A stretch of DNA of 24,000 nt from Aquificales bacterium (GTDB lineage: Bacteria > Aquificota > Aquificia > Aquificales > Aquificaceae), in the NCBI GenBank assembly GCA_027037055.1, contig JALWBR010000018.1:13923-37922 (forward strand), in the 5' to 3' direction. The position numbers and the translations under genes were made by a program. The notes under the pieces are model-generated. The model saw only the letters and a program-made list of their open reading frames with translations, had not been told where the DNA came from and made no database searches. Shown in pieces: positions 2,868 to 23,232 of the stretch. How positions within the stretch are numbered: position 1 is the first letter of the stretch; each line of letters opens with the position of its first letter.

Positions 2868-2868
2868 G

Positions 2869-3483
2869 ATGGAACAGCTTCTTGATTTTTTAAGTAAGGC
2901 GGGTTATGTAATCTATCCCCTTATAATACTTTCCATCTTCTCATGGTTCATCATAATTGAAAGGGCTTTTAACTTAAGGGCATCAAAATTTATTCCTAAG
3001 AATATAAACGATATTAAAAATCTTATCCACAGGGGTGACATAGACGGAGCGATGAAGCTGGCATCTTTAAGTCACGATCCTTTCAGCAGGGCATTAAGTA
3101 CGGTTCTTCAAGAGTATGAAAAGGGCAGGAGAAACAAGATACACCTAAGTCAGATTGCTGAAACAGAGCTTGTTTCCGTGGTCCCTCTTGTTGAAAAAAA
3201 TCTTCTCCTGCTGTCAGCCATTGCATCAATAGCCCCACTGCTTGGCCTTTTTGGAACAATAACGGGGCTTATAAAAGTATTTTCAGCCTTTGCAATCTCC
3301 GAAGCGGAGGAAGGAGTAACCCTCCTTGCCTCTGGAATAAGCGAGGCTTTAACGGCAGCGGCAGCGGGATTGATAGTTGCCATACCCGCCCTGTTCGCCT
3401 ATTGGATCTTCCGTGCTGTGGGCGATAAAATATTGGCGAAGATTGAGAATTCTTTTAAGGAAATACTGGAGATCTTAGAATGA
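2869..3483 (+). CDS. MotA/TolQ/ExbB proton-channel family protein
   Basis: 204 aa with three predicted TM segments. Family signatures are LLGLFGTITGLIKVF and GISEALTAAAAGLIVAIPALFAY. A GAGGTGA Shine-Dalgarno lies upstream of the ATG. Confidence 0.9.
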   Translation: MEQLLDFLSKAGYVIYPLIILSIFSWFIIIERAFNLRASKFIPKNINDIKNLIHRGDIDGAMKLASLSHDPFSRALSTVLQEYEKGRRNKIHLSQIAETELVSVVPLVEKNLLLLSAIASIAPLLGLFGTITGLIKVFSAFAISEAEEGVTLLASGISEALTAAAAGLIVAIPALFAYWIFRAVGDKILAKIENSFKEILEILE

Positions 3484-3881
3484 ATCTGCGGAAGGGAAGA
3501 AGACTATCAAGGGATGAGAGGGCTTACATAGATGTGGTACCCATAGTGGATATACTTCTCGCTGTTTTCCTTTTCTTGGCAATCCTTGCCTTCCAATCTC
3601 CCATGACCTTCATAGCGGTAAAGCTACCCTTTGCAGAACACGGCGAAAAGGGAGCCATAAGTATAATGAAGATACAAGTTACCGCTGACGGATCTTACAG
3701 AATGGGAGGAAAAAGGCTAAGCATATCAGAAATAGATAAAAGGATTAAAAAGGTAAAACCCACATCCATAATAATAGAGGCGGATGAAAGGGCTCAGCAC
3801 AAGTTTGTTGTTCAACTTATGGATATAGCGAAGAAAAATAAGGTGGAAGATCTCGTAATTGCAACAAGAACGAGAAGGTAA
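3480..3881 (+). CDS. ExbD/TolR family biopolymer transport protein
   Basis: 133 aa with an N-terminal IDVVPIVDILLAVFLFLAIL anchor typical of ExbD/TolR. ATGA start/stop overlap with the preceding gene. Confidence 0.85.
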   Translation: MNLRKGRRLSRDERAYIDVVPIVDILLAVFLFLAILAFQSPMTFIAVKLPFAEHGEKGAISIMKIQVTADGSYRMGGKRLSISEIDKRIKKVKPTSIIIEADERAQHKFVVQLMDIAKKNKVEDLVIATRTRR

Positions 3882-8763: not shown

Positions 8764-9440
8764 AATTCGGTGTTTGTGTATTTCCTGGTTCAAACTGCGA
8801 TTATGATACATACTATGTCATAAGGGATGTTCTTGAGAGGGATGTAAGATTTATTTATCACAATGAAACAAATATAAAGGACATAGATATTCTCATCCTT
8901 CCTGGGGGCTTCTCCTTTGGAGATTATGTAAGACCGGGTCTTCTTGCTTCTAAGACCGCTTTGATGGATGCGGTTATAGATTTTGCCCATAAAGGGGGTA
9001 TAGTGCTCGGTATATGTAACGGTTTCCAAATTTTAACAGAAGCGGGATTGCTTCCCGGAGCATTGCTCCCTAATGTAAACGGCAGGTTCATTTGCAAGGA
9101 TGTATATCTACGAATAGAAACAAAGTCAAGGATACTAACAAATAAATTAAAAAGAGGAGATGTATTAAGATTGCCCATAGCCCATCACGACGGCAGATAC
9201 TATGTTGATGATAAAACCCTAAAAGATATGGAAGAAAACGATCAGATAATATTCAGATATGCGGACAAGGAAGGAAACACGGATAACGGATCAAATCCCA
9301 ACGGTTCCGTCTCAAACATAGCGGGTATATGTAACAAAGAGGGAAATGTGTTTGGAATGATGCCCCATCCAGAAAGGGCATCCGAGGATGTTCTCGGAAA
9401 TCATGACGGACTCATGCTGTGGTATTCTCTTATTAGTTAA
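8760..9440 (+). CDS. purQ: Phosphoribosylformylglycinamidine synthase glutaminase subunit PurQ
   Basis: FPGSNCDYD, GGFSFGDY, nucleophile elbow GICNGFQ, and MPHPER. Confidence 0.93.
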   Translation: MKFGVCVFPGSNCDYDTYYVIRDVLERDVRFIYHNETNIKDIDILILPGGFSFGDYVRPGLLASKTALMDAVIDFAHKGGIVLGICNGFQILTEAGLLPGALLPNVNGRFICKDVYLRIETKSRILTNKLKRGDVLRLPIAHHDGRYYVDDKTLKDMEENDQIIFRYADKEGNTDNGSNPNGSVSNIAGICNKEGNVFGMMPHPERASEDVLGNHDGLMLWYSLIS

Positions 9441-10531
9441 TGGTTGAAGAATTCAAAGAAGCGGTTCAAAGAAGGAAGGCGAGGGTTGAAAGTTTTTTAA
9501 AGTGGGAATACCTCAGATTTTCCGATGATTTCAAAGATATTCCGAGGGGTACGGTCCTCTTCGGGAATGCAATTATATGGGGATATCCCCACATAGGTAG
9601 AATATTCAGGCTTGATAAGGGACTTAAAGAGCAATTTGAACATCCATTCTTTATTGAAGAAAAGGTGGACGGCTACAATGTAAGAATATTTGAACACGAC
9701 GGTGATATTGTAGCCCTTACGAGGGGAGGATATATATGCCCCTTTACCATAGACAGGATCCCTGAATTTTTAGACCTTCGTATTTTTGAAGAAAATCCGG
9801 ATATTATTATCTGCGGGGAAGTGGCGGGACCGGGTAATCCCTATATAGAAGAGAGTCCTCCCTTCATTAAGGAAGATGTACAGTTCTTCGTTTTTGACAT
9901 TATGAGTAAAAACAAAAGGGAGTTTTTGCCCTACACAAAGAAATTGGAGCTGATTAATAGGTATAACCTTCCCGCCGTTAAAACATACGGCAGATTTACA
10001 TCAGAGGATATACAAAAAATAAAAGAAATTCTCTTTAAGATGAATGAAGAAGGCAGAGAAGGTGTTGTTTTTAAAGAAGACTCGGAAAGGAACAAAAGGG
10101 TGAAATATGTAACAAGCAATGCAAACCTAAGCGATATAAGGGTAACGGCAAAAAACATGCTACAGCTACCCCCCGAATACTTTACGAACAGACTGCTCAG
10201 GCTCGTTCTTTTTATGGAAGAAGAGGGTATTGAAAAGACGGAAAAGTTATATAAAGATCTGGGTAAAGCCTTCATAGACGGACTATTTGACGCAATAGAA
10301 CAGTACAAAAAGGAACACAGAGTAAGCAGGAAGTTTTTATGTAAATTCAATAAAAAGGAAAATGCCCTCGCACTCATTGAACAGCTCAGCAGTGCTTCCA
10401 GACACATTCAGGTAATTCAAAATCGCTTGGAAAAAGAAGGAGATTATTACATACTTGAGTTTGAAAAGGTGTATCTGAACATGACGGGTTTCTTAGGACA
10501 TATACTAAGTGGCGGTCTTGTGTTTGATTAG
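9440..10531 (+). CDS. ATP-dependent RNA ligase, archaeal Pab1020 (Rnl3-like) family
   Basis: Nucleotidyltransferase motif [11 protein letters not shown] (KxDGxN), motif III FFVFDI, motif IV EGVVFK, motif V RVKYVT. The size (363 aa) fits the homodimeric Pab1020 type. TAATG overlap with the purQ stop. Confidence 0.85.
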
Positions 10532-11095
10532 GCTCTCAAGGACAACCCTTAAATTCTTAGGATTCATTATTTTGATACCCACCTTGTCCGCCCATTTTCT
10601 CAAACCCTCATCCCCCGAAATAAGAACACCGTCAAGCTCATAAGCGAGCAAAAGAACATCCACATCCTCTTTACTGTCAATAATACCCTGCCTTAAGGCT
10701 TCCCTGTACTTTTCCCTCAATCTTGCAATAAGTTTTCCCACATTCTCCTCATCAAGTTTTCCCGCCTCCTTCGTATGCTCCTCCGCTATTCTTAAACCCT
10801 TGTTTATCCTGTATCTTATTTCATCTATAAACTCATAAAGGATCTCACTCGGTATCATGAGCTGATACCTTCTCGGAGACCTTATTCTGACCACCATCTC
10901 AAACTCGGGTACGAGAACCTCCGAACCGAGAATGTGCTGAAGCTCTTCATAAACAGAAGAAGGCATAAAGAATTCCGCTCCCGAATGCATAGCAAGGTGT
11001 ATAAAGGTTTCCACAGCACCGTCGGGAGAGGATTCAAACTGACCGTATATATCTGGATTTGTAAAAACGCTTGTATCAAGGACGAACCTATCCAT
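10505..11095 (-). CDS. PIN-domain metallonuclease of the 'RNA ligase partner' / HARP (Aq_880-like RNA-free RNase P) type
   Basis: 196 aa. PIN acidic residues in [21 protein letters not shown] and LISGDEGL. Size and architecture fit the roughly 23-kDa PIN_5 proteins found beside Pab1020 ligases in archaea and Aquifex. The family assignment is from memory and is not searched. Confidence 0.75.
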
Positions 11096-11118: not shown

Positions 11119-12510
11119 ATGCGTGTGGTAATAGTGGGGAACGGTCCTGCCTCAGCTTCCGCTATAGAATCTTTCAGAGAAATAGATAAGGATTCGGAAA
11201 TAGTAGTCTTATCCGATGAAGAATTCCCTACCTATGCACCAAACTGTATGGAAAATGTGATAAGGAACGATATACAGGATAATGCACTTTTTTACAAAGG
11301 AGGGTTTGAGTTTTACGAAAGATACAAGGTTGATTTCAGACCAAAAAAGGAAGTAAAGGCGGTTGATACAAAAAGAAAGGTTGTTATAACTTCCGACGGG
11401 GATGAGATAGAGTATGATAAGTGCCTCTTAGCCGCAGGTGCTGACTCTTTTATACCTCCTATACAAGGTATTGAACTCGGCGGTGTAACAACCGCAAAGA
11501 ATCTGTACGATGCTTTAAAGATAAGAGAATGGATAAAAAGTGGAAAGATAAAAGATATAGTCATAGTAGGAGCGGGACCCATAGGTATTGAAGATGCGGA
11601 GACCCTCAAACATCTCGGATTTAATGTAACGGTAGTTGAAATATTTAACAGAGTCTTACCGAGAATGCTTGATAAGGACATGGCGGATATATACATGAAG
11701 TATCTGGAAGATCTGGGAATAAGATTCCTCCTTGAGCATCAGGTTACATCCATAGAAGGAAACAACTGGGTTGAGGGAGTAAGGGTAAAACCCATTCAAA
11801 GAGACAGGGAGATTTTCATAAAAGCGGACATGGTCATACTTTCTGTCGGCGTAAGACCCCGTACAAGGCTCGTTGAAAATACTGATATAAAAATACACAC
11901 GGATGAAAAGACGGGTAAACCGATGGGGGGAATATTAACCGATGAGTATCAAAGGACATCAAACCCCGATGTATATGCAGCGGGGGATATATGCTCATCA
12001 GTAGATGTCTTCGGTAATCACAGGTGGATAGCTTTATTCCCTGCAGCCCAGCAGGAAGGATATATTGCGGGGTACAATATGGCAGGATTGAGGGTAAAAA
12101 ATGAAGGAAGCGTTGATTACAATGCGGTAAAAACGAGAGAGGTTACAGCCGGTAGCGGAGGCATTTTCGGAGAGGATAAAGAAATTCTAAAGGTTGAATA
12201 TGATAATTATTTGATAAAAATATTCCTCAGCGAGGGTAGGATAACAGGTTATCAGTTTGTGGGTATACCCGCAAGTGAAGATATTAACAAGACAAATACC
12301 CTTCTCTATTCTCTTGTAAGGGAAGATTGGAAAAATACAGTAATATCAAGAAAGGGTATGGGACTGGAATCCTCGGGAGTGCTTATGCACAACTTCATAA
12401 GGAATAATAGAGTAGTAAACGAAACACATATAGATATAATAATGAAGGGAATACTAAGAGCCTTGGGAAGTACCGCCTTGGATACCCCCCTCTTCCGCAG
12501 AACTCTCTGA
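11119..12510 (+). CDS. FAD-dependent pyridine nucleotide-disulfide oxidoreductase (NADH oxidase / CoA-disulfide reductase-like)
   Basis: Rossmann motifs [13 protein letters not shown] (FAD) and [15 protein letters not shown] (NAD(P)H), YAAGDIC near the C-terminal FAD contact, and a single candidate redox Cys in YAPNCMENV. Confidence 0.85.
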
Positions 12511-13965
12511 TTCCATACCCGGTTTATATATAACTATTCTGTTCTTCCCCAACTTTTTAGCCCTGTAAAGGGCTATATCCGCCTCTTTTATAAGCGTATC
12601 AATATTATCAACATCCTCCCTGTAGGTTGATATACCGCCGCTCACCGTCGTAGATATATATTTGCCATTTACGGGAAACTTCTTTTGTTCAAAGATCTTC
12701 CTTATCCTCTCCGCAACTTGAAATCCACTTTCAGCATCACTATTCTGGAGAACAACAACAAATTCCTCACCGCCGAATCGTGAAACAATATCAGAGCTCC
12801 TTACATTGCTTTTAAGAATTTCCGCAAACTCCTTAAGGACCCTGTCACCCACATCATGACCGTAGTTATCATTTATGTGCTTGAAGTTATCTATATCAAA
12901 AACGACCAATGTAAAAATGTTACCGTACCTTTTAGCATTCTCTATAATCAGCTTTATATGTTCAAAGAAGAACCTCCTGTTATACAGACCAGTAAGGTGA
13001 TCAATATAGGCTATCTCCTGAAGTTTATCCCTTTCCGTTTTTATTTCCTCAATAAGATCTTTCAATCTCTCACCCATAAGCAAAATACTGTGTTTTAACA
13101 TATATATCTCATCCCTATTCTTTTCCCGCGCTATTTCCCTTTCAAGGGCTTCTATCTTTGAAAAATCCCCCCTTTGAAAGGATTCCGCGGTGTCCTTTAT
13201 AAGTTCTATCCCAGAAACAACCCTCCTTATAGTTAGATAAACGATAAAGCTTATAAGGAAGGTAAGAACAAAGTTGTAAAGGGTAAGCTTTATAAATTCC
13301 ACAATGTAACTTCTGTAAAGGGTCGCCATATCCTTGACTATTATTATTCTGCCCGCAGGTATCTCCCCCCTTATTAATATGGGAATATCCATTATGAACT
13401 TTTTATCGGGGAATTCTCCCACAATTCTGTAACCATCAATATCCATGTAATCCGTAAGGCTAAGGATTTCCGTGCTTGATGCATCTTCAACAAGAACCTT
13501 TTTAAAAACATATCTATCCTTTATGTAAATATCCTGAATACCATATTCCTTTAAAATGCCTTCAATAAATTTTTTATCATAAATTATCATCCAGTCAATA
13601 TCTTCAACAAGCTTGATCAGATCAAGAATATCCGCAAGGTGAGAATAAACGAGATAACATCCCTCTTTTTTAGTCACATAAAATCCCACAACCGTACCTT
13701 CATTTGTAAGATCGTAAACCTTAAATTTGTTCTTACACCTATCTTCACTGACCTTCAATAAAGATCCGGGTCCTGCGGTCTCTTTAAGACGGGATATTTC
13801 AAAATCCTCAAAGGTTTTATATAGGGAGTGTATTCTTTTGAAGTTGGTACTTATCTCTCCTTCCAGATTGTTTCTTAGTTGGATAAAGTTAAATATACCT
13901 ATGGTTACAACTATTAGAATTGAAACAATCAAAATACTTAAAAATATCCTCTTTTTCAGGGTCAT
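12454..13965 (-). CDS. Membrane-bound diguanylate cyclase (2 TM + periplasmic sensor + linker/coiled coil + GGDEF with I-site)
   Basis: Catalytic FDIDNFKHINDNYGHDVGD and GGEEF, with an RSSD I-site 5 residues upstream of GGEEF. TM helices lie at about aa 14-36 and 237-262 of the long ORF. The maximal ORF starts at 13989 (MTELYNYMM...). I favour the second of the tandem ATGs (13965, MTLKKRIF...) because of the -10 element geometry. ATG 13968 is also possible. Confidence 0.9.
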   Translation of the reverse strand: MTLKKRIFLSILIVSILIVVTIGIFNFIQLRNNLEGEISTNFKRIHSLYKTFEDFEISRLKETAGPGSLLKVSEDRCKNKFKVYDLTNEGTVVGFYVTKKEGCYLVYSHLADILDLIKLVEDIDWMIIYDKKFIEGILKEYGIQDIYIKDRYVFKKVLVEDASSTEILSLTDYMDIDGYRIVGEFPDKKFIMDIPILIRGEIPAGRIIIVKDMATLYRSYIVEFIKLTLYNFVLTFLISFIVYLTIRRVVSGIELIKDTAESFQRGDFSKIEALEREIAREKNRDEIYMLKHSILLMGERLKDLIEEIKTERDKLQEIAYIDHLTGLYNRRFFFEHIKLIIENAKRYGNIFTLVVFDIDNFKHINDNYGHDVGDRVLKEFAEILKSNVRSSDIVSRFGGEEFVVVLQNSDAESGFQVAERIRKIFEQKKFPVNGKYISTTVSGGISTYREDVDNIDTLIKEADIALYRAKKLGKNRIVIYKPGMESESSAEEGGIQGGTSQGS

Positions 13966-13970
13966 CATAT

Positions 13971-13982
13971 AATTATATAATT
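13971..13982. promoter_or_regulatory. 12-bp perfect palindrome AATTATATAATT providing -10 boxes for both nadD and the diguanylate cyclase gene
   Basis: Plus strand: TATAAT (13976-13981), 6 nt, then nadD ATG 13988. Minus strand: TATAAT (13977-13972), 6 nt, then ATG 13965 (or 3 nt to ATG 13968). Confidence 0.45.
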
Positions 13983-13987
13983 CGGTC

Positions 13988-14581
13988 ATGATACTATTCT
14001 TTGGCGGTAGCTTTGATCCGATTCACAACGGACATCTTATTCTCGCGGAGGATGTCAGGGAAAAGCTGGGATTTAAAAAGGTAATTCTTATTCCCGCAAA
14101 CATATCGCCCCTCAAAGGAAGATATGTAGCACCACCCGAGCACAGGATACGCATGATAGATATATCAATAAGGAACCTTGAAAACTTTGATGTTGACCTT
14201 TGGGAGATAAAGGCAGGCGGAGTTTCTTACACAATAAATACAATAAAGTACATTAAGGAAAAGTACGGTAATAAACCCTACATGCTTGTCGGAGCGGACA
14301 GTATGCTAAGCTTTGACAAATGGAAGGATCCGGAAAAAATCCTTAAAGAAAGCTGTATAGTTATTATGGAAAGGGAAGGAAAACTTCCCTTGGTGGAAAG
14401 ATTTATGACAGAGAAATTTCCGTCCTTTAAAGAAGGCAAGGATTATTTAATAGTAAAAACCAGGCGTATAGATATATCTTCCACTGAAATAAGGGAAAGG
14501 GTAAAAAGGGGACTTCCTATAAGAGGGATGGTACCCGTGGAGGTAGAGACTTATATAAAAGAAAAGGGTCTTTATAAATAA
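13988..14581 (+). CDS. nadD: Nicotinate-nucleotide adenylyltransferase
   Basis: FFGGSFDPIHNGHL (HxGH) at the N-terminus and ISSTEIRERV (ISSTxxR) near the C-terminus. 197 aa. Confidence 0.93.
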   Translation: MILFFGGSFDPIHNGHLILAEDVREKLGFKKVILIPANISPLKGRYVAPPEHRIRMIDISIRNLENFDVDLWEIKAGGVSYTINTIKYIKEKYGNKPYMLVGADSMLSFDKWKDPEKILKESCIVIMEREGKLPLVERFMTEKFPSFKEGKDYLIVKTRRIDISSTEIRERVKRGLPIRGMVPVEVETYIKEKGLYK

Positions 14582-14875
14582 CTACTGTGTCTCACTTATT
14601 TCCGTTATCCTTATACCTATCTTATCTCCCACTATAACCATCTCCCCTTTGGCAATAGGCACACCGTTAACCTTAACATCTATGGTGTCACTTATGTTCC
14701 TTTCAAGCTCTATAACGGAACCAGCCTGCAGATTTATAAGATCCCGTACAAGAATGGTAGCCTCTCCCAAAGAACCTTCTATCTTCATTGGGATATCATG
14801 AAGTTTCTCGCATTTCTCCAATTCACATAAATTGTGCTCTTCCCTTTTTTCTTCTCTCCCTTGACCGTTTTCCAT
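14582..14875 (-). CDS. fliN: Flagellar motor switch protein FliN (minimal SpoA-domain form)
   Basis: SpoA domain LGEATILVRDLINLQAGSVIELERNISDTIDVKVNGVPIAKGEMVIVGDKIGIRITEI. I chose the start at ATG 14875 (97 aa) because GAAGGAGA lies 7 nt upstream and it forms a TAATG overlap with the fliF stop. The longer ORF start at 14896 has no SD. Confidence 0.88.
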   Translation of the reverse strand: MENGQGREEKREEHNLCELEKCEKLHDIPMKIEGSLGEATILVRDLINLQAGSVIELERNISDTIDVKVNGVPIAKGEMVIVGDKIGIRITEISETQ

Positions 14876-16398
14876 TATCTTGTCTCCTTCAACCATGATT
14901 TGATAATCTTGGCAACCTTGTTAGGCTCTTCCTTCGCTATATTGGTTATAGTATCTATTACTATAACCTCCTTTGCCTTTTCCCTTATAGCCTCAAGGCC
15001 CGCAACACTTTCAAGCTCTCCAGCAGTGGGTACCTTGGCAGGAGTAGGCGGAGCTTCAACAGTAACCCTCTCCCTTCTTCCCAATCTTCTCATCAAAATA
15101 ACAAAAGCTATAAAAGCAAGCAAAGCCATAAAGGCATAAACGCCCCATCTTATATATTCGGAGTAATCAACATATTCAACAAACTCGGGTTTTTGAAAGG
15201 GAACGGAAACTATGGATATCTTGTCTCCCCTTTCCATGTTAAGCCCTGCAGCGGCTACAATCATATCCTCAAGCTTTTTCAAATCCACATCCTTCTCAGC
15301 ATTCTTGTCTATAAGAACACCCACACTTATCCTCTTTATCTTCGGTGCATAGTCCGCCGTATAGATCTCCTTTTTACTCACCTCAAAGTTTGTTGTAACT
15401 TCACTTTTCTCCGTATTTATAGTCCCACCGCCCCCTACACCTGCCCCCGGCGGTATATTTGCGGTTGCACCCGGGATACCACCTATACCCGTACCCATTG
15501 TTCTCTCTTTCCTTTTCTGTTGACTGACAACAGCAGTCATGTCTGGATCATATATCTCTTCCTTCTTCTCCATTTTTGTAAAGTCCATCTCCGCGGATAC
15601 GACAACCTTAACCTTGTCATAGCCTATGGTTTCGGAAAGGGCTTTCAAAATCTTCTTTTCCAATTTCCTTTCAAACTCAGAAACTATCTTCAACTGCTTC
15701 TCACTAACGCCTTTAAATTCGTCTCCCTCATCAAGGAGGGCTGTAAGGTCCCTGCCCCTGTCGTCAATTATAACCACATTGGAAGGTTTAAGTCTTTCAA
15801 CACTTGATGCTACAAGATTTCTGATGGCTATAATCTGTTCACGGGTAATATCCGTACCAGGCTTAAGCTTTATAAAGACGGAAGCGGAAGGTTCTTCTTC
15901 CTCCCTTAGGAATATTGATTTTTCTGGTATGGCTATATGCACCCTTGCATCGGTAATGTTCTTTATTCTTAGAATAGTTCTGACAAGTTCTCCCTCTATA
16001 GCCCTTTTGTAATTTACCTGTTGTTGAAAATTTGAAATACCTATCCCCGTTTTATCAAAAATCTCATAACCTATTATGCCCTTACTGGGAATACCCTTTG
16101 CACTGAGCTTAAGCCTTATATCTCTTACCTGACCTTCCGGAACGAGAACGGTCCTCCCATCCTTCCCTATCTTATACTTAACTCCTTCCTTATCCAGTTC
16201 CGTTAAGATAGCTACCATATCCTCTTGACTGAGACCAGAGTAAAGGATTGAGTAGCTGGGCTGGGCTAAATAAACGGAAGCAACCCCAAGAATTATAATA
16301 AGACCGAGGGCGGAAGCTATTATCAAAAACTTTTGTGTCGTAGGAAGCTGTTTAAACCTTTCTACTAAGCCCCTTATACTTTCCCTTACATCAGCCAT
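14875..16398 (-). CDS. fliF: Flagellar M-ring protein FliF
   Basis: 507 aa. N-terminal TM, YscJ/FliF ring-building domains (LYSGLSQEDMVAILTELDKEGVKYK...), second TM (VYAFMALLAFIAFVILM) and a charged C-terminal tail. Confidence 0.93.
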   Translation of the reverse strand: MADVRESIRGLVERFKQLPTTQKFLIIASALGLIIILGVASVYLAQPSYSILYSGLSQEDMVAILTELDKEGVKYKIGKDGRTVLVPEGQVRDIRLKLSAKGIPSKGIIGYEIFDKTGIGISNFQQQVNYKRAIEGELVRTILRIKNITDARVHIAIPEKSIFLREEEEPSASVFIKLKPGTDITREQIIAIRNLVASSVERLKPSNVVIIDDRGRDLTALLDEGDEFKGVSEKQLKIVSEFERKLEKKILKALSETIGYDKVKVVVSAEMDFTKMEKKEEIYDPDMTAVVSQQKRKERTMGTGIGGIPGATANIPPGAGVGGGGTINTEKSEVTTNFEVSKKEIYTADYAPKIKRISVGVLIDKNAEKDVDLKKLEDMIVAAAGLNMERGDKISIVSVPFQKPEFVEYVDYSEYIRWGVYAFMALLAFIAFVILMRRLGRRERVTVEAPPTPAKVPTAGELESVAGLEAIREKAKEVIVIDTITNIAKEEPNKVAKIIKSWLKETR

Positions 16399-16399
16399 A

Positions 16400-16690
16400 T
16401 TAAACCTGCATCCTCTGAAGTTCCTGGAATGCCTCTAAAAGCTTATTTCTTATTTGAATCAAAAGATTTAGTGCCAATGAAGCCTTCTCAAATTCTATTA
16501 TGGCAGAATGAAGGGGAATATTCTCCCCCCTTAAGATAGCTGATTTTATCTCTTTTGACTTTAACTGTTGCCTATTTACCCACTCTATAAAGGAAGATAA
16601 TTGCTTAGCAAAGTCATCCCCCTTTCCTTGTTTAATATCATTTCCCTTTATGTGCTTTAATGGTAAAGAAGGAAAATCTCTTATCTCCAT
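16400..16690 (-). CDS. fliE: Flagellar hook-basal body complex protein FliE
   Basis: The C-terminal FEKASLALNLLIQIRNKLLEAFQELQRMQV matches the conserved FliE C-terminus (..VRNKl..AYqEimrMqv). Confidence 0.88.
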   Translation of the reverse strand: MEIRDFPSLPLKHIKGNDIKQGKGDDFAKQLSSFIEWVNRQQLKSKEIKSAILRGENIPLHSAIIEFEKASLALNLLIQIRNKLLEAFQELQRMQV

Positions 16691-17094
16691 AGTTCTAATG
16701 TCCTCTCCGCCATTTCCCTTGTCATATTAAAAGCTGTCATATTTGCCTCATAACTCCTTATTGCGGATATCATGTTTGCCATCTCCTTTGCAAGATCAAT
16801 GTTAGGTTTCATAACATAACCTTCCTCATTGGCCATGGGGTGGTCGGGATCATAAACCATTCTGAAAGGTTCATCTGATTCTATTATACCTTCAACCCTT
16901 ACCGGTATCTCTCCCCTTTCCTTAGATTTTGGATCCTCAACAGCCCTGAATACAACCTCCAACCTTCGGAAAGGTACACCTTCCTCCGTATAAGAGTCAT
17001 AATTTGCCAGATTTGAGGCTATGGTGTTCATCCTTATCCTCTGGGCGTACATACCAGATGCACTTATATTGAATGCGTTAAATACATCATTCAT
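16681..17094 (-). CDS. flgC: Flagellar basal-body rod protein FlgC
   Basis: ISASGMYAQRIRMNTIASNLANYDS at the N-terminus and AIRSYEANMTAFNMTREMAERTLEL at the C-terminus. Confidence 0.93.
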   Translation of the reverse strand: MNDVFNAFNISASGMYAQRIRMNTIASNLANYDSYTEEGVPFRRLEVVFRAVEDPKSKERGEIPVRVEGIIESDEPFRMVYDPDHPMANEEGYVMKPNIDLAKEMANMISAIRSYEANMTAFNMTREMAERTLELWR

Positions 17095-17471
17095 CTTCTA
17101 CCCTCCTTGATCACATTTTCCAATTTCCTCAAATATCCCGTTGCCATCTTCATATAAGTTTCATAAGCCAATCTGTTTTTTACCATCTTTGCCATCTCCT
17201 CTTCTATACTCACATTATTTCTATCGTTACCTACAAGGCCCCTGTTAATCTCAATAACTTTAAAACTACTTCCCTCACCTGACCCGTCCAAGTGCTTCGC
17301 CCTTGTTTTTTTCAATTTAAGTACTTTTCCCAATTCTCTGCGGAATATAACATCCTTTGCCCTGTAACCCGGCGTATCCGCATTGGCTATATTGCTGAGT
17401 ATAACCTTATGCCTTAACCATGTATAATTTAAAAAGGGTTTAAGCTCGTCCGCCCCTTTAAATATGTCCAT
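17091..17471 (-). CDS. flgB: Flagellar basal-body rod protein FlgB
   Basis: LSNIANADTPGYRAKDV rod-protein N-terminal motif. 126 aa. GGGGGT SD 5 nt upstream. ATGA overlap with flgC. Confidence 0.92.
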   Translation of the reverse strand: MDIFKGADELKPFLNYTWLRHKVILSNIANADTPGYRAKDVIFRRELGKVLKLKKTRAKHLDGSGEGSSFKVIEINRGLVGNDRNNVSIEEEMAKMVKNRLAYETYMKMATGYLRKLENVIKEGRR

Positions 17472-17474
17472 AAT

Positions 17475-19253
17475 TTACCCCCACAAGGCTTTTATAGCCT
17501 CACTCCATATATTATTAGTCTCCGAAGCCTTTTTGACAACCCATTTTAAAAGTTCCTTGTCCTTTCTTATCTCACCTATCCTACCCATCTGAAATATAGC
17601 CCACCAGAAATAGGGATCCCTATTATCACCCTTATGTTCAATAAACTTTCTGTAATATTTTTCCGCCTCCGCGTATTTTTTCATATCAAAATATTTATCC
17701 CCCAACCTCAACAAAGCATATTCCTTCATAAAATCCATTCCTTTTACCTTCTCCGCCTCCTTAAGGAATGCCTTATAGCTCTTTAGGTCATCACCTATGT
17801 AAGCAACAAGAAATAATGCCCTCACCTTATGGGTACCATCTATACCCTTGATAGATGCCTTTAACAGCCTAAGACTCCTCTTTCTATCACCTTTAAGAAA
17901 TGCATAAATACCTTCTATATAGCTCCTTAAATATTTGTTACTCAACTCTTTTGATAGTGAAACAGCCTCCTCATCACCCGTATTAAGTAGTGCAAGAACG
18001 GTTATCTCTTTCTGTTTATCCTTCCAGAATATTTCCTTAACATTGTTTCTATTAGTCTTGTAAAGATCAACTATCAATAAGCTATCTTTACGAGGAGATA
18101 GGGACTCATAAACACCATGAAGCAATCGGATTTCCTTTGTTTTATTAGCTATGTCTTCCCTGTAAACATTTTTAACCTTTAAAACCTCCCTATCCCCTTC
18201 ATCAATATGTTTTTCTTTAAGGATCAGGTAATAAATGCCGAGAAGGGGAAGTATGCTTCTTTTCTCCTCTATATTAAGCCATACTATATCCCTAAGTTTT
18301 GACCTGTAATCCTTAAAAAACTCATTGTAGGTTTGAAGAAAATCGTAATACATCCATAAAGAGGAAAATATGGCTTGGGCTGTTTTACTTGATAGAAGCG
18401 TGTTTTCATCCGCATACTTCTTTATTTTCTCAAAGGCATCCTTGTAATTTTTATTATCCAGATATATAAAAATTAAATACATATTTATCTTGTCCGTATA
18501 TTCACCGTAATAATCCTTCCTTGACGCTATTTCCAAATAAAGGGTCGCCTTTTTTATATCACCCGTTCTGTAGTAAGAGGCTCCGAGTCTGTATAAAAAA
18601 GCGGGATCATTCTCAAGATACGGGTTTATGCTTCTTGCAATGGAAAGATACTCCACAGCCTTTTTATACTCTTCAATATTGAACATAAAATAGCCGAGAA
18701 CCGTGTAGTAAAGATCCTTTATATCTTTAATATCTTCCTCTTTAAGTCTGAGTACCCGGGTGTATCCTTCCATACTGTCCATAACCGCGGAAGAGAGGGC
18801 AAACTTAATGAGATATTTGGGACTTCCTTTCTCCTTGTAAAGGGTGTCGTAAACAGCTTTGGCTTTCTCATACCAGCCTATCATGTAGTAGCAGTCTCCC
18901 AAAAACTCCCTTTGTAGCAAGGGAAATCTCGGAGTCTTATATTCATAAAAATATTTATTTAAAAAGGCAATGGCGGATCTTATACCGCTCCTGTGACCGG
19001 TGGAATAAAAATATAGGGCGTAGGCTTTTCCCAAATAAAGGTAGGATAGTTCTCCGTAATAGCTTTCCGGAGCAGTGGAATATAGGGAAGAAAAGATATT
19101 TATAGCGCCTATGTAGTCTCCGACTGACAGGCTTTTAACCCCATCATTAAAAAGGGCTTTAAGATTCTCCTTCCCCCTAAGCTCACTATTAAAGGAGTAG
19201 GCTGAAATCAGTACTATCAGAAACAGAGGAAGTCTTCTTACCAGCGATTTCAT
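17475..19253 (-). CDS. Secreted TPR-repeat protein (592 aa), periplasmic scaffold candidate
   Basis: Signal peptide MKSLVRRLPLFLIVLISAYS. TPR-like units throughout (GDYIGAINIFSSLY, GWYEKAKAVYDTLY, GDIKKATLYLEIA, KNYKDAFEKIKKY, KKYAEAEKYYRKFIE). Its stop lies 3 nt before the flgB start. Confidence 0.8.
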   Translation of the reverse strand: MKSLVRRLPLFLIVLISAYSFNSELRGKENLKALFNDGVKSLSVGDYIGAINIFSSLYSTAPESYYGELSYLYLGKAYALYFYSTGHRSGIRSAIAFLNKYFYEYKTPRFPLLQREFLGDCYYMIGWYEKAKAVYDTLYKEKGSPKYLIKFALSSAVMDSMEGYTRVLRLKEEDIKDIKDLYYTVLGYFMFNIEEYKKAVEYLSIARSINPYLENDPAFLYRLGASYYRTGDIKKATLYLEIASRKDYYGEYTDKINMYLIFIYLDNKNYKDAFEKIKKYADENTLLSSKTAQAIFSSLWMYYDFLQTYNEFFKDYRSKLRDIVWLNIEEKRSILPLLGIYYLILKEKHIDEGDREVLKVKNVYREDIANKTKEIRLLHGVYESLSPRKDSLLIVDLYKTNRNNVKEIFWKDKQKEITVLALLNTGDEEAVSLSKELSNKYLRSYIEGIYAFLKGDRKRSLRLLKASIKGIDGTHKVRALFLVAYIGDDLKSYKAFLKEAEKVKGMDFMKEYALLRLGDKYFDMKKYAEAEKYYRKFIEHKGDNRDPYFWWAIFQMGRIGEIRKDKELLKWVVKKASETNNIWSEAIKALWG

Positions 19254-20499
19254 GCCTTATACTCTCTCTATCCCTGTCTCCCTTTTTATTGTAATTTAAC
19301 GGTTTTTCGGACTTTGATATAATCTGCCATCCGTTAACACTTAGCATCTCAAGATCAAATCCTATGATATGAAGCCTTTCCGAGAGCCTTATCTTATCAA
19401 GAAAAGATATATTCTCAGGAACAAGATTTTCAGATCTAACAGATACAGACAGCTTTTCCCTCTCAACCCTTAAGACTATGTTTATATCCTCAGTCTTCAA
19501 ATGAACCCTCTTCGGCTTTGAAATGTTGTTTGTTTCATATTCAGAAATGTCTATAGTTTGCCTTACCTCCGCCACATCCTCAAACTGTTTTATTTCCTCC
19601 TTCCCGCCTCCTGTCTTATGAAGATGATAAACATCCCTTATATCCTCTCTCTTAACAGGTCTTTCAACTTCAGCACTTACTGATTCGGTAACATAATCAC
19701 CCTTCGCATATACCTTTGTCTTCAGCTTAACATCATTAGCATTACCGCCACCATCAACGTGTTTCTTAATAAATTCCCTGGACTCTCCTTTTTCATTAAT
19801 GGGTTCCTTTTCAAATTCAAGGTGTATATTACCCTTTGCCTTACTAAAACCCTCTCTTGAGGGTGAAACCTCTCTTTTATACTCGGATTTTACATCATAA
19901 GGTTGCTTTTGAGGTAGCATATCCTCCTTTAGAAAACCTATATCCCCCTTCTCATTATTCTCTTTCTCTCCATACACTTCCCTTCTTAATATCTCCCCCT
20001 TAATTTTCTCCATTTCGTAGGGTTTAACATCCTTTACATTACTCTTAAGAGCCTCAAATACAGGCTTATCTGTTAAAGATATCTTCTGAACAGCACTTCC
20101 AATGTTCTTTTCCACCTTTTCTGTATTAACACTTAAAATTAATTCCGTCTTACCAGTTTCACTTTGAGGTTTACTTTTATTTTCTTCTGGTTTCTCGCCA
20201 TCAGTAATGTTTTCAACCTTCACATATTTAATATCACCGATAGGTAATACATTTCCTTGTAGTACATTGACGCTCTTTTTCTCTGTATCGTCCTTCTCAG
20301 AATTTACACTATCCAGTATATGCAAACCATCTCCTTTTCTCTCCTCTTTGATACCCCCCATAATCTGGGTTATAATTTCCGAAAATTCCATATACTCACC
20401 ATTTTGTTCCTCAGACTTGGGGGTTAAAAGATCTAATATATCCTCCCCCTTTTTTCCTTTTATACCCCACAAGAATACAGGTAATCCGAATCCGTTCAC
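19189..20499 (-). CDS. Glu/Lys-rich hypothetical protein (436 aa) with a possible FliK-like (hook-length control) C-terminal domain
   Basis: GTG start in a GTGA overlap with the glycosyltransferase stop. An alternative start is ATG 20391. The long low-complexity charged middle and the C-terminal segment RVHLKTEDINIVLRVEREKLSVSVRSENLVPENISFLDKIRLSERLHIIGFDLEMLSVNG follow the alternating pattern of Flg_hook domains but lack the usual P..LG. The functional call is weak. Confidence 0.55.
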   Translation of the reverse strand: MNGFGLPVFLWGIKGKKGEDILDLLTPKSEEQNGEYMEFSEIITQIMGGIKEERKGDGLHILDSVNSEKDDTEKKSVNVLQGNVLPIGDIKYVKVENITDGEKPEENKSKPQSETGKTELILSVNTEKVEKNIGSAVQKISLTDKPVFEALKSNVKDVKPYEMEKIKGEILRREVYGEKENNEKGDIGFLKEDMLPQKQPYDVKSEYKREVSPSREGFSKAKGNIHLEFEKEPINEKGESREFIKKHVDGGGNANDVKLKTKVYAKGDYVTESVSAEVERPVKREDIRDVYHLHKTGGGKEEIKQFEDVAEVRQTIDISEYETNNISKPKRVHLKTEDINIVLRVEREKLSVSVRSENLVPENISFLDKIRLSERLHIIGFDLEMLSVNGWQIISKSEKPLNYNKKGDRDRESIRHEIAGKKTSSVSDSTDFSLLL

Positions 20500-22349
20500 T
20501 TAGAATAGTATATTCCTTCTTTTTTAGCTTTCAAGTACTTTGAAATTCCGTGCTGAGTCTTATACCAGTAAAAGGGTCTTTTTATAAGCTCATAAAGGGC
20601 TATGTAAGCTGATAAGGAATGAAGATACCAATAAAGAGGAATGAGTATAGAAAAAGGTAACAGGTTGTAATATCCCCTCCTCAACAAACCGATAGCATGC
20701 AAAACAATACCCATACCGTTTCCGATCACAAATGTGTATAAGGATATTGTCTTTACATCAAAGGCGGGTGATACAAATAGAGAAAAAAGCATAACAAAGG
20801 GATGGGCAAGGAATATAAAGGGAGTCCCGCCTATGAGCAGAAAGAGGGTCAATAATCCCCTCACACCCGTGTGTTTATATAGATAACCCATATTCCTTGA
20901 GTGGACAAGAAAAGTTTGCATATAACCCTTAATCCATCTGGATCTTTGCTTAATCCAGTTCTTCAAACGGGCATTTGCCTCTTCATAGGTCGTTGAGTTT
21001 ATAAATCCCACCCTGTACCCCTTAACCGCAAATCTTATTCCGAGATCTGCATCTTCCGTTGTATTAAAGGGATCCCAACCTTTTACTCCATCAAGCTTAC
21101 TCCTGTCAAAGTGATTACTTGTACCACCGAGGGGAATGGGAAATCCAAGTTTAACAAGACCCGGTATCATACAGTCAAACCAAAAGCTGTATTCAAGTGT
21201 AAATAGTTTGGTTAAAAGGTTTTCATCCCTGTTGTAGAAGTTAAGCTTGGCCTGTAAACATGCTGTATCCCCTCTACACTTTTCAAAATTAGCAAGGGCG
21301 AGCCTCAATTGATCGGGTTCCGGTATGTCTTCCGCATCGTATATCGTTACATACTTTCCCCTTGCAAAAAATAACCCGTAATTACATGCCTTAGGTTTTG
21401 TCTTAGGCATACTTGCAGGGACTATAACAAACCTCCAGTTATAAGGGGGATTATACCTTTTTGCACTTACAAGGGTCTCATAATCATCCTCTTCAAGGAT
21501 GAGTATGATGTCAAGCTTGTGTTGAGGATAATCAAGTCTCTTTAAAGCACTTATAAGATTTCCTATAACCTCCTTCTCCCTGTAAAGGGGTAAAAGTATG
21601 GTATAAACCGGATACTCATCCCTTTTATTTTCACCTATCTTTACCCTGTTTCCGCAGGAAGAAATAAGACCCGCTAAGCTTACAAAAAGTTTAAAAGCTA
21701 TGGCTGAAATGTAAAATACCTGCATTGCAATGAACATACCCGTTGAAGAACGGGAAGGATATAAAATAAGGGAAAGGATAATTAACAGGCCCACGGTAAG
21801 GAAAAACATCTTTTGTTTCTTTGAAATAACAAGGCTCGCTGATAAATTTTCACTTTCCCTTTTAAGGGAAGAAACAGCAAAATCCATAAGTTCTCTGTGA
21901 AAAACGCTTTGAATGATCCTTTGTAGATCGTTATCGGATATAAGTTTTAAATCAACACGGTTAAACACATACTTATGCTTTAGCTTCTTTGTAATAAACC
22001 TTAAGTCAAGATTTTCCCTCGGATAGGATGTTGCAACAATAAGTGTGTCATCTTCAATCCTTAAAGGTATACACTGATTATCCCATATCTCCTTCGGAGA
22101 AAATATCTTTATTAAACCGATATCCAATTCATTAATTGAGGGTGAAAAGAACCCTATACCGTATTGCTGTGATAGGGCGGTATATAACTCCCTTTTGTTT
22201 ATGTAGCCGAGAGATAGTAATATCCAGCCTATTCTACCACCGAATCTTCTCTGATAGTCAAGGGCATATTTAAGTTGTGTCTCACTTATAACACCGCTCT
22301 CAACCAGTATCTCCCCTATCCTTAAGGTGGCAGTTAAAACTCCGCCCAT
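20496..22349 (-). CDS. Membrane-embedded processive family-2 glycosyltransferase (exopolysaccharide synthase) with an N-terminal MshEN/T2SSE_N c-di-GMP receptor domain
   Basis: Residues 10-33 (RIGEILVESGVISETQLKYALDYQ) and 39-62 (RIGWILLSLGYINKRELYTALSQQ) fit the MshEN 24-mer motif. Two TM helices lie at about aa 181-230. GT2 core: YTILLPLYRE, LEEDD, KPKACNYG, DAED (338-341), TED (431-433), QRSRW (468-472). Further TM helices run to the C-terminus. Confidence 0.9.
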   Translation of the reverse strand: MGGVLTATLRIGEILVESGVISETQLKYALDYQRRFGGRIGWILLSLGYINKRELYTALSQQYGIGFFSPSINELDIGLIKIFSPKEIWDNQCIPLRIEDDTLIVATSYPRENLDLRFITKKLKHKYVFNRVDLKLISDNDLQRIIQSVFHRELMDFAVSSLKRESENLSASLVISKKQKMFFLTVGLLIILSLILYPSRSSTGMFIAMQVFYISAIAFKLFVSLAGLISSCGNRVKIGENKRDEYPVYTILLPLYREKEVIGNLISALKRLDYPQHKLDIILILEEDDYETLVSAKRYNPPYNWRFVIVPASMPKTKPKACNYGLFFARGKYVTIYDAEDIPEPDQLRLALANFEKCRGDTACLQAKLNFYNRDENLLTKLFTLEYSFWFDCMIPGLVKLGFPIPLGGTSNHFDRSKLDGVKGWDPFNTTEDADLGIRFAVKGYRVGFINSTTYEEANARLKNWIKQRSRWIKGYMQTFLVHSRNMGYLYKHTGVRGLLTLFLLIGGTPFIFLAHPFVMLFSLFVSPAFDVKTISLYTFVIGNGMGIVLHAIGLLRRGYYNLLPFSILIPLYWYLHSLSAYIALYELIKRPFYWYKTQHGISKYLKAKKEGIYYSK

Positions 22350-23134
22350 AACGATAAAAACCCTCCTTCAGATTTACCCGTGTTCAAACCGTACAAGGTT
22401 TTTATAAACCCAATAAAAAGGGAGTAATTACCTGCCCTTATGCGCGGGCCTATGTAAAGATTAAGCAGTTCAAAGCTATCGGGTACAAATACATTGGGAA
22501 CTATATTAAGATTGGTTTCCGCTGTCCTTTGGAAATCAAGGGTGCCTATGAGCTGAAATCCCTTACCAATATTACCACCCAAGGTAAGATAAGAAGAAGA
22601 GATACTAAGCACCACATCTGTGTACTTTCTGTAACCGAAACCGCTATCAACAAACACCCATTTATTGGAATAACCTCCCAAAAGACCCACCTCAAAGGCG
22701 TAACTTCCGTAGCCTATAATCGGTTCAATGCTTGTGCTGTAGTTCCAAGGGATTATAAATTTTCCATAAAGGGAAAATACAAAGGGGTCGTAATAAACAA
22801 AACTGCCTATTATTCCCACCTCTATATCCTGAAGGTTTCCGTTGTATTTTTCCCCGCAGGTTATGAGGGTAAGGGGTACTTTAAATATTAAAGTGGCCCT
22901 ATCGCTCAACCCGTATTCACTGTAACCTATGAGATCATGTTTTGTATATGAACATTCAAGTTTTTTCTCTTTACCGTACTTATCAAAGTATGAGTTTGCT
23001 GTAAGAAAAAAATAGGTAAGGGAAAAGAAGTAATGGTTCTTTTTACGGAGCCATGCGGAAGCTTCCGCCTCTTTAATTGTAACAAATATAAGTAAAACTA
23101 CTATACAACGCCCGAACCCCTTCCGGCTTTTCAT
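22334..23134 (-). CDS. Outer-membrane beta-barrel protein (266 aa), candidate polysaccharide export porin
   Basis: Signal peptide with an AEA/SA cleavage-like site. Alternating hydrophobic/aromatic beta-strand pattern throughout. C-terminal ...GFLSLWAEF ends in Phe, as in OMP sorting signals. AAGGAAGGT SD 7 nt upstream of the ATG. 16-bp overlap with the synthase gene. Confidence 0.7.
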   Translation of the reverse strand: MKSRKGFGRCIVVLLIFVTIKEAEASAWLRKKNHYFFSLTYFFLTANSYFDKYGKEKKLECSYTKHDLIGYSEYGLSDRATLIFKVPLTLITCGEKYNGNLQDIEVGIIGSFVYYDPFVFSLYGKFIIPWNYSTSIEPIIGYGSYAFEVGLLGGYSNKWVFVDSGFGYRKYTDVVLSISSSYLTLGGNIGKGFQLIGTLDFQRTAETNLNIVPNVFVPDSFELLNLYIGPRIRAGNYSLFIGFIKTLYGLNTGKSEGGFLSLWAEF

Positions 23135-23232
23135 TTATATTACCTTCCTTATTTGAAAGTTATTTATTTCATGTTAATATATTACGGTCTTACCGAAAGG
23201 CAATATTGATTATTTCCACACTCAAAATATCT

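Follow-up and report, generated by a model that had tools for sequence, protein, structure and literature searches.

How is a membrane-bound polysaccharide synthase controlled when a putative receptor for c-di-GMP, the cyclic dimeric form of guanosine monophosphate, stands at its N-terminus, and by which route would its product leave the cell? The question is raised by a stretch of 24,000 nucleotides (the window) from contig JALWBR010000018.1 of a hot-spring Aquificales bacterium. The source is a metagenome-assembled genome (MAG) of this order, in agreement with the initial annotation of the same DNA, which had described the genome as thermophile-like. The gene in question, at 20496-22349 on the minus strand, encodes a 617-residue MshEN-glycosyltransferase family 2 (GT2) synthase of the XagB-like family, as judged from open reading frame (ORF) calling, Pfam and NCBIfam domains and an AlphaFold2 (AF2) model. 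This synthase is probably an inner-membrane processive GT2 enzyme with an N-terminal MshEN c-di-GMP receptor, whose polymer leaves the cell through the outer-membrane barrel encoded by the gene immediately upstream.

ORF calling places the 617 codons on the minus strand; the plus-strand translation of the same interval has stops throughout. The initial annotation had given the correct interval and left the strand unstated. The G+C content of the window is 39.7%. A GGAGG sequence lies about 12 nt upstream of the synthase ATG, and a 16-nt overlap joins the start of the gene with the stop codon of the upstream outer-membrane protein (OMP) gene. The N-terminus of the protein reads MGGVLTATL-RIGEILVESGVISETQLKYALDYQ-RRFGG-RIGWILLSLGYINKRELYTALSQQ.

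The N-terminal MshEN domain

The first MshEN motif occupies residues 10-33 (RIGEILVESGVISETQLKYALDYQ; 22251-22322, minus strand) and the second residues 39-62 (RIGWILLSLGYINKRELYTALSQQ; 22164-22235, minus strand), 5 residues past the first. The spacer RRFGG gives a 53-residue unit (residues 10-62). These positions and the spacer had already been proposed, and they are recovered by a relaxed motif pattern, by the NCBIfam model NF053729 and by alignment to Vibrio cholerae MshE (PDB 5htl). The synthase deviates from the MshEN consensus by Ile instead of Leu at the second position of each motif and by Tyr49. The tyrosine, at position 11 of motif II, had also been listed as a deviation; the residue is present, but Tyr is the norm of the family, being found in 38 of 46 homologues. 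Across the six frames of the window, the relaxed pattern has two sites only, both in the synthase, against a chance expectation of about 6e-6 matches per window calculated from composition and none in 200 shuffles. NF053729 ("c-di-GMP_motif, MshE-related") matches residues 10-62 over its whole length (model positions 1-53 of 53) with 64.2 bits and an E-value of 6.7e-18, which is 26 bits over the cut-off of 38.

The phmmer alignment to V. cholerae MshE is gapless over 105 residues (query 9-113 with chain 8-112). In motif I, R10, I11, G12, G19, L26, L30 and Q33 of the synthase fall on R9, L10, G11, G18, L25, L29 and Q32 of MshE; in motif II, R39, I40, G41, G48, L55, L59 and Q62 fall on R38, L39, G40, G47, L54, L58 and Q61. 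The aligned MshE positions form the ligand cage for c-di-GMP (Wang et al. 2016), and all 14 of the 14 key contact positions of VcMshE are kept in the synthase. The same search against the PDB also matches the c-di-GMP-binding N-domains of Thermus thermophilus PilF, as well as PilB proteins.

The MshEN_C (T2SSE_N1-like) subdomain follows at residues 63-153 (21891-22163, minus strand), where the Pfam MshEN model PF05157 gives 34 bits versus a cut-off of 23.1 and where alpha/beta elements are predicted. A T2SSE_N-like domain reaching to about residue 150 had been part of the initial annotation and is borne out by this match. AF2 predicts the MshEN_N helices at residues 11-17, 23-36, 40-46 and 52-63 and further strands and helices up to residue 149, with a predicted local distance difference test (pLDDT) score of about 81-97 over the MshEN region and of about 81-93 in MshEN_C. 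The model has the predicted four-helix MshEN_N bundle and then the MshEN_C alpha/beta subdomain, as in MshEN receptors. MshEN constructs bind c-di-GMP with affinities from 14 nM to 0.5 uM (Wang et al. 2016). By its residues, the synthase would be expected to bind c-di-GMP specifically and with high affinity.

The conservation of these residues was followed in the alignment also used for AF2, which comprises 46 sequences with 45-53% identity. In motif I, position 10 is R in 17 homologues and K in 17, G12 is kept in 45 of the 46, G19 in 43, L26 in 42, L30 in 44 and Q33 in all. Motif II retains R39, G41 and L59 in 44 homologues each, and W42 and G48 in every one. Its final position is Q62 in the synthase and H in 31 of 46 homologues; since the family residue is usually His, the synthase is here nearer to the canonical MshEN motif than the family consensus is.

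A wider view is given by a scan with each GTDB species represented by one genome, in which at least 584 species genomes encode a relative; the best 80, on which all counts of gene context are based, cover about residues 10-605. They come from Aquificota, Thermotogota, Desulfobacterota, Actinomycetota, Chloroflexota and Cyanobacteria, and further from Bacteroidota, Gemmatimonadota, Synergistota, Thermus and Proteobacteria. MshEN retention was scored from alignments at the 14 key positions in 78 genome-derived relatives. From 11 to 14 positions are kept in 46 of the 78 (Aquificota, Thermotogota, Desulfobacterota, most Actinomycetota, Gemmatimonadota and Thermus). The motif is decayed to 4-8 positions in the other 32, with the domain itself still present; these are mainly Bacteroidota (Mucilaginibacter and Pedobacter) and cyanobacteria, along with a few Chloroflexota and two Actinomycetota/Microbacteriaceae MAGs. 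The decayed loci of Bacteroidota are L032, L038 and L054-L080, and those of cyanobacteria L040, L044, L048, L051, L055, L073 and L078. The split of 46 to 32 suggests, at the level of sequence, that lineage-specific selection retains the ligand site in those lineages that use it and lets it decay in the rest.

Loss of binding is documented for certain MshEN homologues, XpsE among them (Wang et al. 2016). The N-terminal domain of the synthase might likewise be a non-signalling MshEN fold, a structural, oligomerisation or docking module as in XpsE/GspE of Xanthomonas, with the enzyme regulated in some other way. The Bacteroidota and cyanobacterial relatives, which keep the domain with 4-8 of the 14 key residues, speak for a silent sensor of this kind, and so do Trp42 and Tyr49, which are family-specific residues within motif II. 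Such a sensor is nevertheless unlikely in the synthase itself, given its full set of key positions, its margin over the NF053729 cut-off and the preservation of the motif in orthologues that are 75% and about 52% identical. The XpsE-type changes (G11V, I19R, L29R, R38G, G40L, L54H, L58C and Q61V) are all absent from it.

Catalytic core, predicted barrel partner and family neighbourhoods

The rest of the protein is a membrane-embedded glycosyltransferase. After a linker helix that follows MshEN_C in the AF2 model, an N-terminal transmembrane (TM) helical hairpin spans residues 177-229 (21663-21821, minus strand), with hydropathy peaks at 178-201 and 204-232 and predicted helices at 177-196 and 198-229. 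The cytoplasmic GT-A (GT2) domain, assigned from Pfam and motif positions, covers residues 245-460 (20970-21617, minus strand) and carries EEDD286, DAED338 and TED431. It is followed by an interface helix (residues 462-484) with QRSRW at residues 468-472 (nt 20934-20948), and then by four long helices at residues 487-506, 508-525, 530-558 and 561-590; together these elements (20580-20966, minus strand) are presumed, from AF2 and Foldseek, to form the translocation channel. Two membrane helices before the GT-A domain and four after it would put sensor, catalytic domain and C-terminus alike on the cytoplasmic side. The initial annotation had read the same order of two TM helices, a GT2 core with DAED, TED and QRSRW and further TM helices, and Pfam, hydropathy and AF2 agree on it; the Pfam GT2 models PF13632, PF13641 and PF00535 all match residues 249-524 above their cut-offs, so that both domains of the proposed fusion are recovered by profile search.

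The QxxRW and TED motifs mark processive beta-glycan synthases, and the D, DxD, TED and Q(Q/R)xRW signature of processive membrane GT2 synthases is complete in the synthase. Its residues E286, E287, D289, D338, E340, D341, T431, E432 and D433, together with Q468, R469, S470, R471 and W472, are invariant in the 46 homologues. The same holds for W595, K597, T598, H600 and G601, which form a W-x-K-T-x-H-G motif at residues 595-601 (20547-20567, minus strand), 127 residues after QxxRW. We take this motif to recall the FxVTxK gating loop of BcsA, and it is a candidate gating loop here.

The AF2 model has a mean pLDDT of 88.6 and a predicted template modelling (TM) score of 0.89. The best Foldseek matches in the PDB are the Chlorella virus and Xenopus hyaluronan synthases, with E-values from 1.7e-13 (7sp7) to about 1e-11, followed by BcsA (4p00, E 1.6e-11; 4hg6 also) and, more weakly, by yeast and oomycete chitin synthases (Chs1, E 7e-9). 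As modelled, the GT-A domain is packed on interface helices and on a channel-forming TM bundle, as in BcsA, hyaluronan synthase and chitin synthase. Processive polymerisation coupled to translocation would be expected of such an enzyme.

A probable route beyond the inner membrane is suggested by the upstream gene at 22334-23134 (minus strand), which encodes a predicted 12-strand outer-membrane beta-barrel of 266 residues, assigned from AF2, PDB matches and neighbourhood. The protein has a signal-peptide-like N-terminus and ends in SLWAEF, the terminal aromatic residue being shared by its family. The AF2 model is an all-beta barrel (pLDDT 76.8), and in the PDB it fits best to two 12-stranded channels, the COG4313 protein 4rl8 (TM-score 0.74) and the secretion channel FapF. 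The OMP has no Pfam family, and word-indexed protein searches with it gave 2 matches and then 16. Its homologues adjoin the synthase in 26 of the 80 other loci, all from diderm lineages, and the family has no member in the Actinomycetota, Chloroflexota and Geobacillus loci among the 80. The OMP is counted as part of the system because it is a conserved neighbour, a predicted barrel, confined to diderms and overlapping with the synthase start. It is likely to be the outer-membrane conduit for the polymer. The initial annotation had named an OMP gene and a tetratricopeptide repeat (TPR) gene as neighbours; conservation beside the synthase in other lineages extends to the first and not to the second.

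Other partners are recognised when ORFs within 6 kb of the synthase are clustered over the 80 loci, of which 57 are well flanked. A BcsB-like protein of about 690 residues (Pfam BcsB, with a signal peptide and a C-terminal anchor) is found in 49 of the 80 loci and in 36 of the well-flanked ones. The corresponding numbers are 46 and 32 for an XagC-like multi-pass membrane protein of about 510 residues (PMT_2 match, GT39 in the record annotation), 26 and 21 for the OMP-like protein of about 270 residues, which has no Pfam family and is also present in the window, and 17 and 16 for a GH5 protein of about 380 residues (Pfam Cellulase). In the Bacteroidota and cyanobacterial loci with a decayed motif, the BcsB-like partner occurs in 22 of 26 and the GT39-like partner in 21 of 26. 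Both are absent from 18 of the 57 well-flanked loci. The synthase locus itself lacks the XagB-type operon partners (BcsB-like, XagC and XagD/GH5), and neither the window nor about 10 kb upstream contains a gene of the BcsB, GT39/XagC or hydrolase type.

Some neighbours bear on the nature of the product. In Thermocrinis, a mannose-1-phosphate guanylyltransferase is encoded two genes downstream of the orthologue (TIGR01479, 558 bits versus a cut-off of 373). A mannose-1-phosphate guanylyltransferase/phosphomannose isomerase gene stands beside the synthase in 8 of the 80 loci, in distant lineages (L003, 4267-5652; L084, 2579-3961). These GDP-mannose-pathway genes and the GH5 neighbours give a hint, from gene content, of a mannose- or beta-glycan-type polymer; the window holds no GDP-mannose-pathway or GH5 gene. 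On the Geobacillus stearothermophilus plasmid pEF60063-1 (L084, CP128455.1, 33.7-40.5 kb), a nucleotidyltransferase, BcsB, MshEN-GT2 and GT39 are encoded in a row. The plasmid is conjugative and holds the complete module, so horizontal transfer of the system is possible.

The GT39-like partner also raises a different view of the chemistry, according to which the synthase would be a non-processive GT2 enzyme whose product, a lipid-linked monosaccharide (as with DPMS, GtrB or ArnC) or else a glycolipid, would serve a periplasmic glycosyltransferase of the GT-C type. A PMT_2/GT39-like gene follows the synthase in the 46 loci mentioned above, which is the classic pairing of GT2 with GT-C; a mannosyltransferase, PcManGT, appears at rank 19 of the fold comparison (E 1.2e-10); and an XagB-like gene has been auto-annotated as monoglucosyl-diacylglycerol synthase (Kato et al. 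2015). Against this stand the invariance of QRSRW and TED in the 46 homologues, the channel-forming nature of the best fold matches (hyaluronan synthase, BcsA and Chs1), the BcsB-like, GH5 and outer-membrane-barrel partners in other loci, which fit a secreted polymer, and the lack of any GT-C gene in the window. A lipid-sugar enzyme is thus improbable, a little more so than a silent sensor, and processive synthesis of a secreted polymer remains the preferred account.

The local gene cluster and the proposed mechanism

The synthase belongs to a run of nine packed minus-strand genes, in the order OMP, synthase, a 436-residue protein (U436), TPR protein, flgB, flgC, fliE, fliF and fliN. Adjacent genes overlap or are separated by a few bases; the only sizeable gap, of about 100 nt before the TPR gene, depends on the start chosen for the latter. 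There is no convincing terminator between the nine genes. On the other side, 112 nt separate the OMP gene from the divergent prfA, and the roughly 9 kb further upstream on that side contain housekeeping genes. The prfA/OMP gap includes a weak sigma-70-like promoter match (TTGCCT-16-TATATT, 9 of 12 positions; 23176-23203, minus strand), in a scan whose site counts do not exceed those of shuffles. The window has no c-di-GMP riboswitch or other Rfam RNA at the gathering threshold, and no tRNAs.

A candidate source of the signal lies 6.5 kb from the synthase. The gene at 12454-13989 (minus strand) encodes a 511-residue HAMP-GGDEF membrane diguanylate cyclase, supported by Pfam GGDEF (175.8 bits) and TIGR00254 (195 bits). 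Two TM segments enclose a domain of about 190 residues and are followed by HAMP and GGDEF. The protein carries GGEEF at residue 406 and an I-site RSSD at residue 397 (RxxD five residues upstream). The cyclase is syntenic in three related contigs, and its position is kept in L081 and L082.

The gene order from OMP to fliN, together with the cyclase, is conserved in relatives whose synthases are 98%, 93% and 75% identical, the first two values belonging to two MAGs also named "Aquificales bacterium". The value of 98% is that of L081. In L082 the identities are 75% for the synthase, 77% for the OMP, 82% for the TPR protein, 81-94% for the flagellar proteins, 83% for the cyclase and 42% for U436. 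In the other 78 family loci, no flagellar genes adjoin the synthase, which makes the flagellar linkage a real and stable property of this lineage and not of the family as a whole.

The flagellar part of the cluster (14582-17471, minus strand) has fliF directly followed by a gene for a 104-residue FliN-only protein, with no fliG, fliH or fliI after fliF. It ends at a convergent nadD-like gene, beyond which the cyclase is found. U436 (19189-20499, minus strand), a Lys/Glu-rich protein of 436 residues encoded between the synthase and the TPR gene, has no Pfam or NCBIfam family. It has 16 relatives at E<=0.001 among 1.8 billion representatives and none in a metagenome scan, and its conserved C-terminal part of about 110 residues reads ...NISFLDKIRLxERLHxIGFxLEMLSxNG...DFSLLL. 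By eye, the C-terminus resembles the hook-length-control domain of FliK. This identity is unsupported: the whole protein, its C-terminal 160 residues at E up to 10 and 14 relatives gave no Pfam match, and a profile search of the PDB returned noise. The TPR gene (17475-19253, minus strand) lies 3 nt upstream of flgB. Its start is ambiguous, giving either 592 residues with a signal-peptide-like N-terminus and a 65-nt overlap with the previous gene, or 536 residues as in the ENA record of the contig; in L082, an orthologue of 589 residues agrees with the longer form. The TPR protein was considered and rejected as an export partner, as its matches are generic TPR matches and the only relative in which BLAST places it beside the synthase is the closest one, L002; in L081 and L082, gene tables show a TPR gene of similar size in the corresponding place.

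Two other groups of genes in the window may be mentioned. At 306-3881 (plus strand), a gene for an 853-residue TPR protein precedes ExbB/TolQ-like and ExbD/TolR-like genes, a possible energising module of the Tol/Ton type. At 9440-11095, a Pab1020-type RNA ligase gene (RNA_ligase and Lig_C) is convergent with a PIN_5 ribonuclease gene, the two overlapping by 27 nt.

The conserved position at the head of a flagellar cluster admits two further interpretations. In the first, the OMP-synthase pair serves the flagellum, its glycan being a sheath, an anchor or a brake and not a general biofilm matrix. The packed run of nine genes without a convincing terminator and the conservation of the whole order and the cyclase down to 75% synthase identity are in its favour, and it has been reported that NfrB-dependent exopolysaccharide can impede the motility of Escherichia coli (Junkermeier and Hengge 2021). 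The lack of flagellar neighbours in the other 78 loci points the other way, since the linkage is lineage-specific and may be incidental, and U436 and the TPR protein are without a demonstrated flagellar identity. A dedicated flagellar role appears very unlikely, and the least probable of the alternatives considered here. In the second interpretation, a reduced two-gene module of OMP and synthase, free of BcsB-, GT39- and hydrolase-type partners, has been recruited to the head of the flagellar basal-body operon beside a dedicated cyclase, and its product works on or at the flagellum as a brake, an anchor or a holdfast-like adhesin. This is a speculative proposal with a low probability, comparable to that of the lipid-sugar enzyme. 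If true, the recruited module would be a hard-wired motile-to-sessile switch, a latent glycan machine turned on by c-di-GMP, in which the fast-evolving U436 and the TPR protein would link the glycan and flagellar machines.

For the c-di-GMP-gated synthase with its barrel, which we prefer, the following sequence of events can be proposed. A nucleotide-sugar would be polymerised in the cytoplasm and the chain threaded through the channel formed by the synthase's own helices. By analogy with NfrB and BcsA, the GT2 site would be autoinhibited until c-di-GMP relieves the inhibition, and the nucleotide would accordingly act as an activator rather than as an inhibitor. A rise in c-di-GMP might come from the HAMP-GGDEF cyclase 6.5 kb away. 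One c-di-GMP would bind to the four-helix MshEN_N bundle, and the resulting change would be relayed via MshEN_C and the TM hairpin so as to open the active site, possibly through release of the C-terminal loop with the invariant WxKTxHG motif. The polymer would then leave the cell through the 12-strand barrel of the translationally coupled upstream OMP gene.

Several points weigh against this mechanism. The retention of the domain in relatives with a decayed motif implies that it also has a c-di-GMP-independent role. The locus is without the BcsB-like and GT39-like partners that about 60% of the well-flanked relatives have, so the enzyme might need factors encoded elsewhere. Promoter and terminator scans of the region gave counts not above those of shuffles, with terminator-like matches inside genes. 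Moreover, full-text literature searches returned no biochemical or structural study of an MshEN-GT2 enzyme with an N-terminal sensor.

Comparison with named systems

In a word-indexed protein search, the synthase has at least 8000 matches. The best 120, which were inspected, are about 620 residues long and 45-53% identical over 96-99% of the query, and their sources include Aquifex pyrophilus and Hydrogenobacter thermophilus. Three of them bear the Joint Genome Institute (JGI) name "glycosyltransferase XagB", with 46-47% identity over 96-98% of the query. By full-length homology and by the order MshEN, two TM helices, GT2 and four TM helices in about 620 residues, the synthase can be placed in an XagB-like MshEN-GT2 family; the link to XagB is drawn from JGI names and published descriptions.

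The initial annotation had implied that a fusion with the sensor at the N-terminus is rare. This proved incorrect: surveyed across genomes, the arrangement is the normal architecture of a family that spans many phyla, with the at least 584 species genomes given above, and it had already been catalogued. Both "Glyco_trans_2_3 - MshEN" (NfrB) and "MshEN - Glyco_trans_2_3" are entered in Supplementary Table 4 of Wang et al. (2016), the second exemplified by Rhodobacter sphaeroides Rsph17029_0522 and recorded from Actinobacteria, Firmicutes and Proteobacteria. The fusion was read there as c-di-GMP control of polysaccharide secretion (Wang et al. 2016). The architecture is common, and it is expected rather than anomalous in genome scans. 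What remains of interest is the canonical motif with a minimal partner set in a thermophile, and the conserved position at the head of the flagellar cluster.

How c-di-GMP controls synthases has been established for PilZ (BcsA and Alg44), for the interface between PgaC and PgaD and for NfrB with its C-terminal MshEN domain. The family with an N-terminal MshEN domain is far more widespread, and it includes XagB-like enzymes that have been implicated in Xanthomonas biofilms and in the stalks of iron oxidisers. The Aquificales orthologue, with its canonical motif, confident model and one obligatory-looking partner, is a convenient thermostable subject, which could show how MshEN gates a GT2 channel and help to identify the product. 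According to the tables of Wang et al. (2016), MshEN is the sole known type of c-di-GMP receptor in H. thermophilus; if the orthologue of that species is the receptor concerned, the enzyme may be a main c-di-GMP output in the phylum.

XagB, from the xagABCD biofilm exopolysaccharide cluster of Xanthomonas, and the XagB-like Sfz2/CDS10 of stalk-forming iron oxidisers are among the closest named systems, and Sfz2 shares with the synthase an N-terminal T2SSE_N domain (IPR007831) joined to GT2. In stalk-forming Zetaproteobacteria, Sfz2 was described as an N-terminal T2SSE_N domain with a GT2 domain containing QxxRW and TED, and the former was not recognised there as a c-di-GMP receptor (Koeksoy et al. 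2021). The cluster of bcsB-like, xagB, xagC and xagD genes was defined by Kato et al. (2015). In Xanthomonas oryzae, the extra biofilm formed in the high-c-di-GMP background of a mutant of rpfG, which encodes a c-di-GMP phosphodiesterase, requires xagA and xagB; c-di-GMP binding by XagB is not reported in the literature searched. XagB-type clusters include a bcsB-like gene, xagC (GT-C-like) and xagD (for a hydrolase), none of which occurs within 10 kb in the window, whereas the window, unlike these clusters, has the OMP gene, the 436-residue protein gene, the TPR gene and flagellar genes. Rsph17029_0522 has the same domain order as the synthase and is known from a bioinformatic listing, in which Aquificota and the many further phyla of the genome scan are not mentioned.

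NfrB of E. coli is the only MshEN-GT2 enzyme with biochemical data, and both c-di-GMP binding by its MshEN domain and its glycosyltransferase activity are required (Junkermeier and Hengge 2021). Like the synthase, it combines a processive-type GT2 domain with DxD, TED and QxxRW and a fully conserved MshEN; its c-di-GMP binding is proven, and it works with an outer-membrane partner of its own and with DgcJ, a specific local cyclase. The order of the domains is reversed, as NfrB begins with GT2 and ends with MshEN, and an identity with NfrB is rejected by NF008411, which gives 47.9 bits versus a cut-off of 1170 and matches residues 10-127 (the MshEN part) only. The outer-membrane partners differ too: NfrA is a large fusion of TPR and barrel, whereas the synthase locus has a 266-residue barrel and a separate TPR protein, the latter not conserved in the family.

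Class I hyaluronan synthases (Chlorella virus enzyme and Xenopus HAS1) offer the best overall fold, with a TM-score of about 0.5 on the target, at 13-16% identity; they are without a nucleotide-sensor domain and make a different polymer. Their layout is presumably similar to that of the synthase, with two N-terminal TM helices, a GT-A domain, interface helices and C-terminal TM helices. An identity as PgaC/IcaA is rejected by TIGR03937 (55.2 bits versus a cut-off of 422.3), and one as BcsA by TIGR03030 (51.6 bits versus 699) and NF008558 (47.8 versus 992). BcsA is nevertheless related to the synthase through the GT2 core (E. coli BcsA 7lby, E 6e-10, residues 246-522) and through the fold match. 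It is a c-di-GMP-gated synthase-translocase, and its BcsB-like partner is common to many members of the MshEN-GT2 family. The two enzymes differ in the position and nature of the sensor: BcsA has a C-terminal PilZ domain, for which Pfam gives no match in the synthase, and eight TM helices, whereas the synthase has an N-terminal sensor of another fold and six TM helices.

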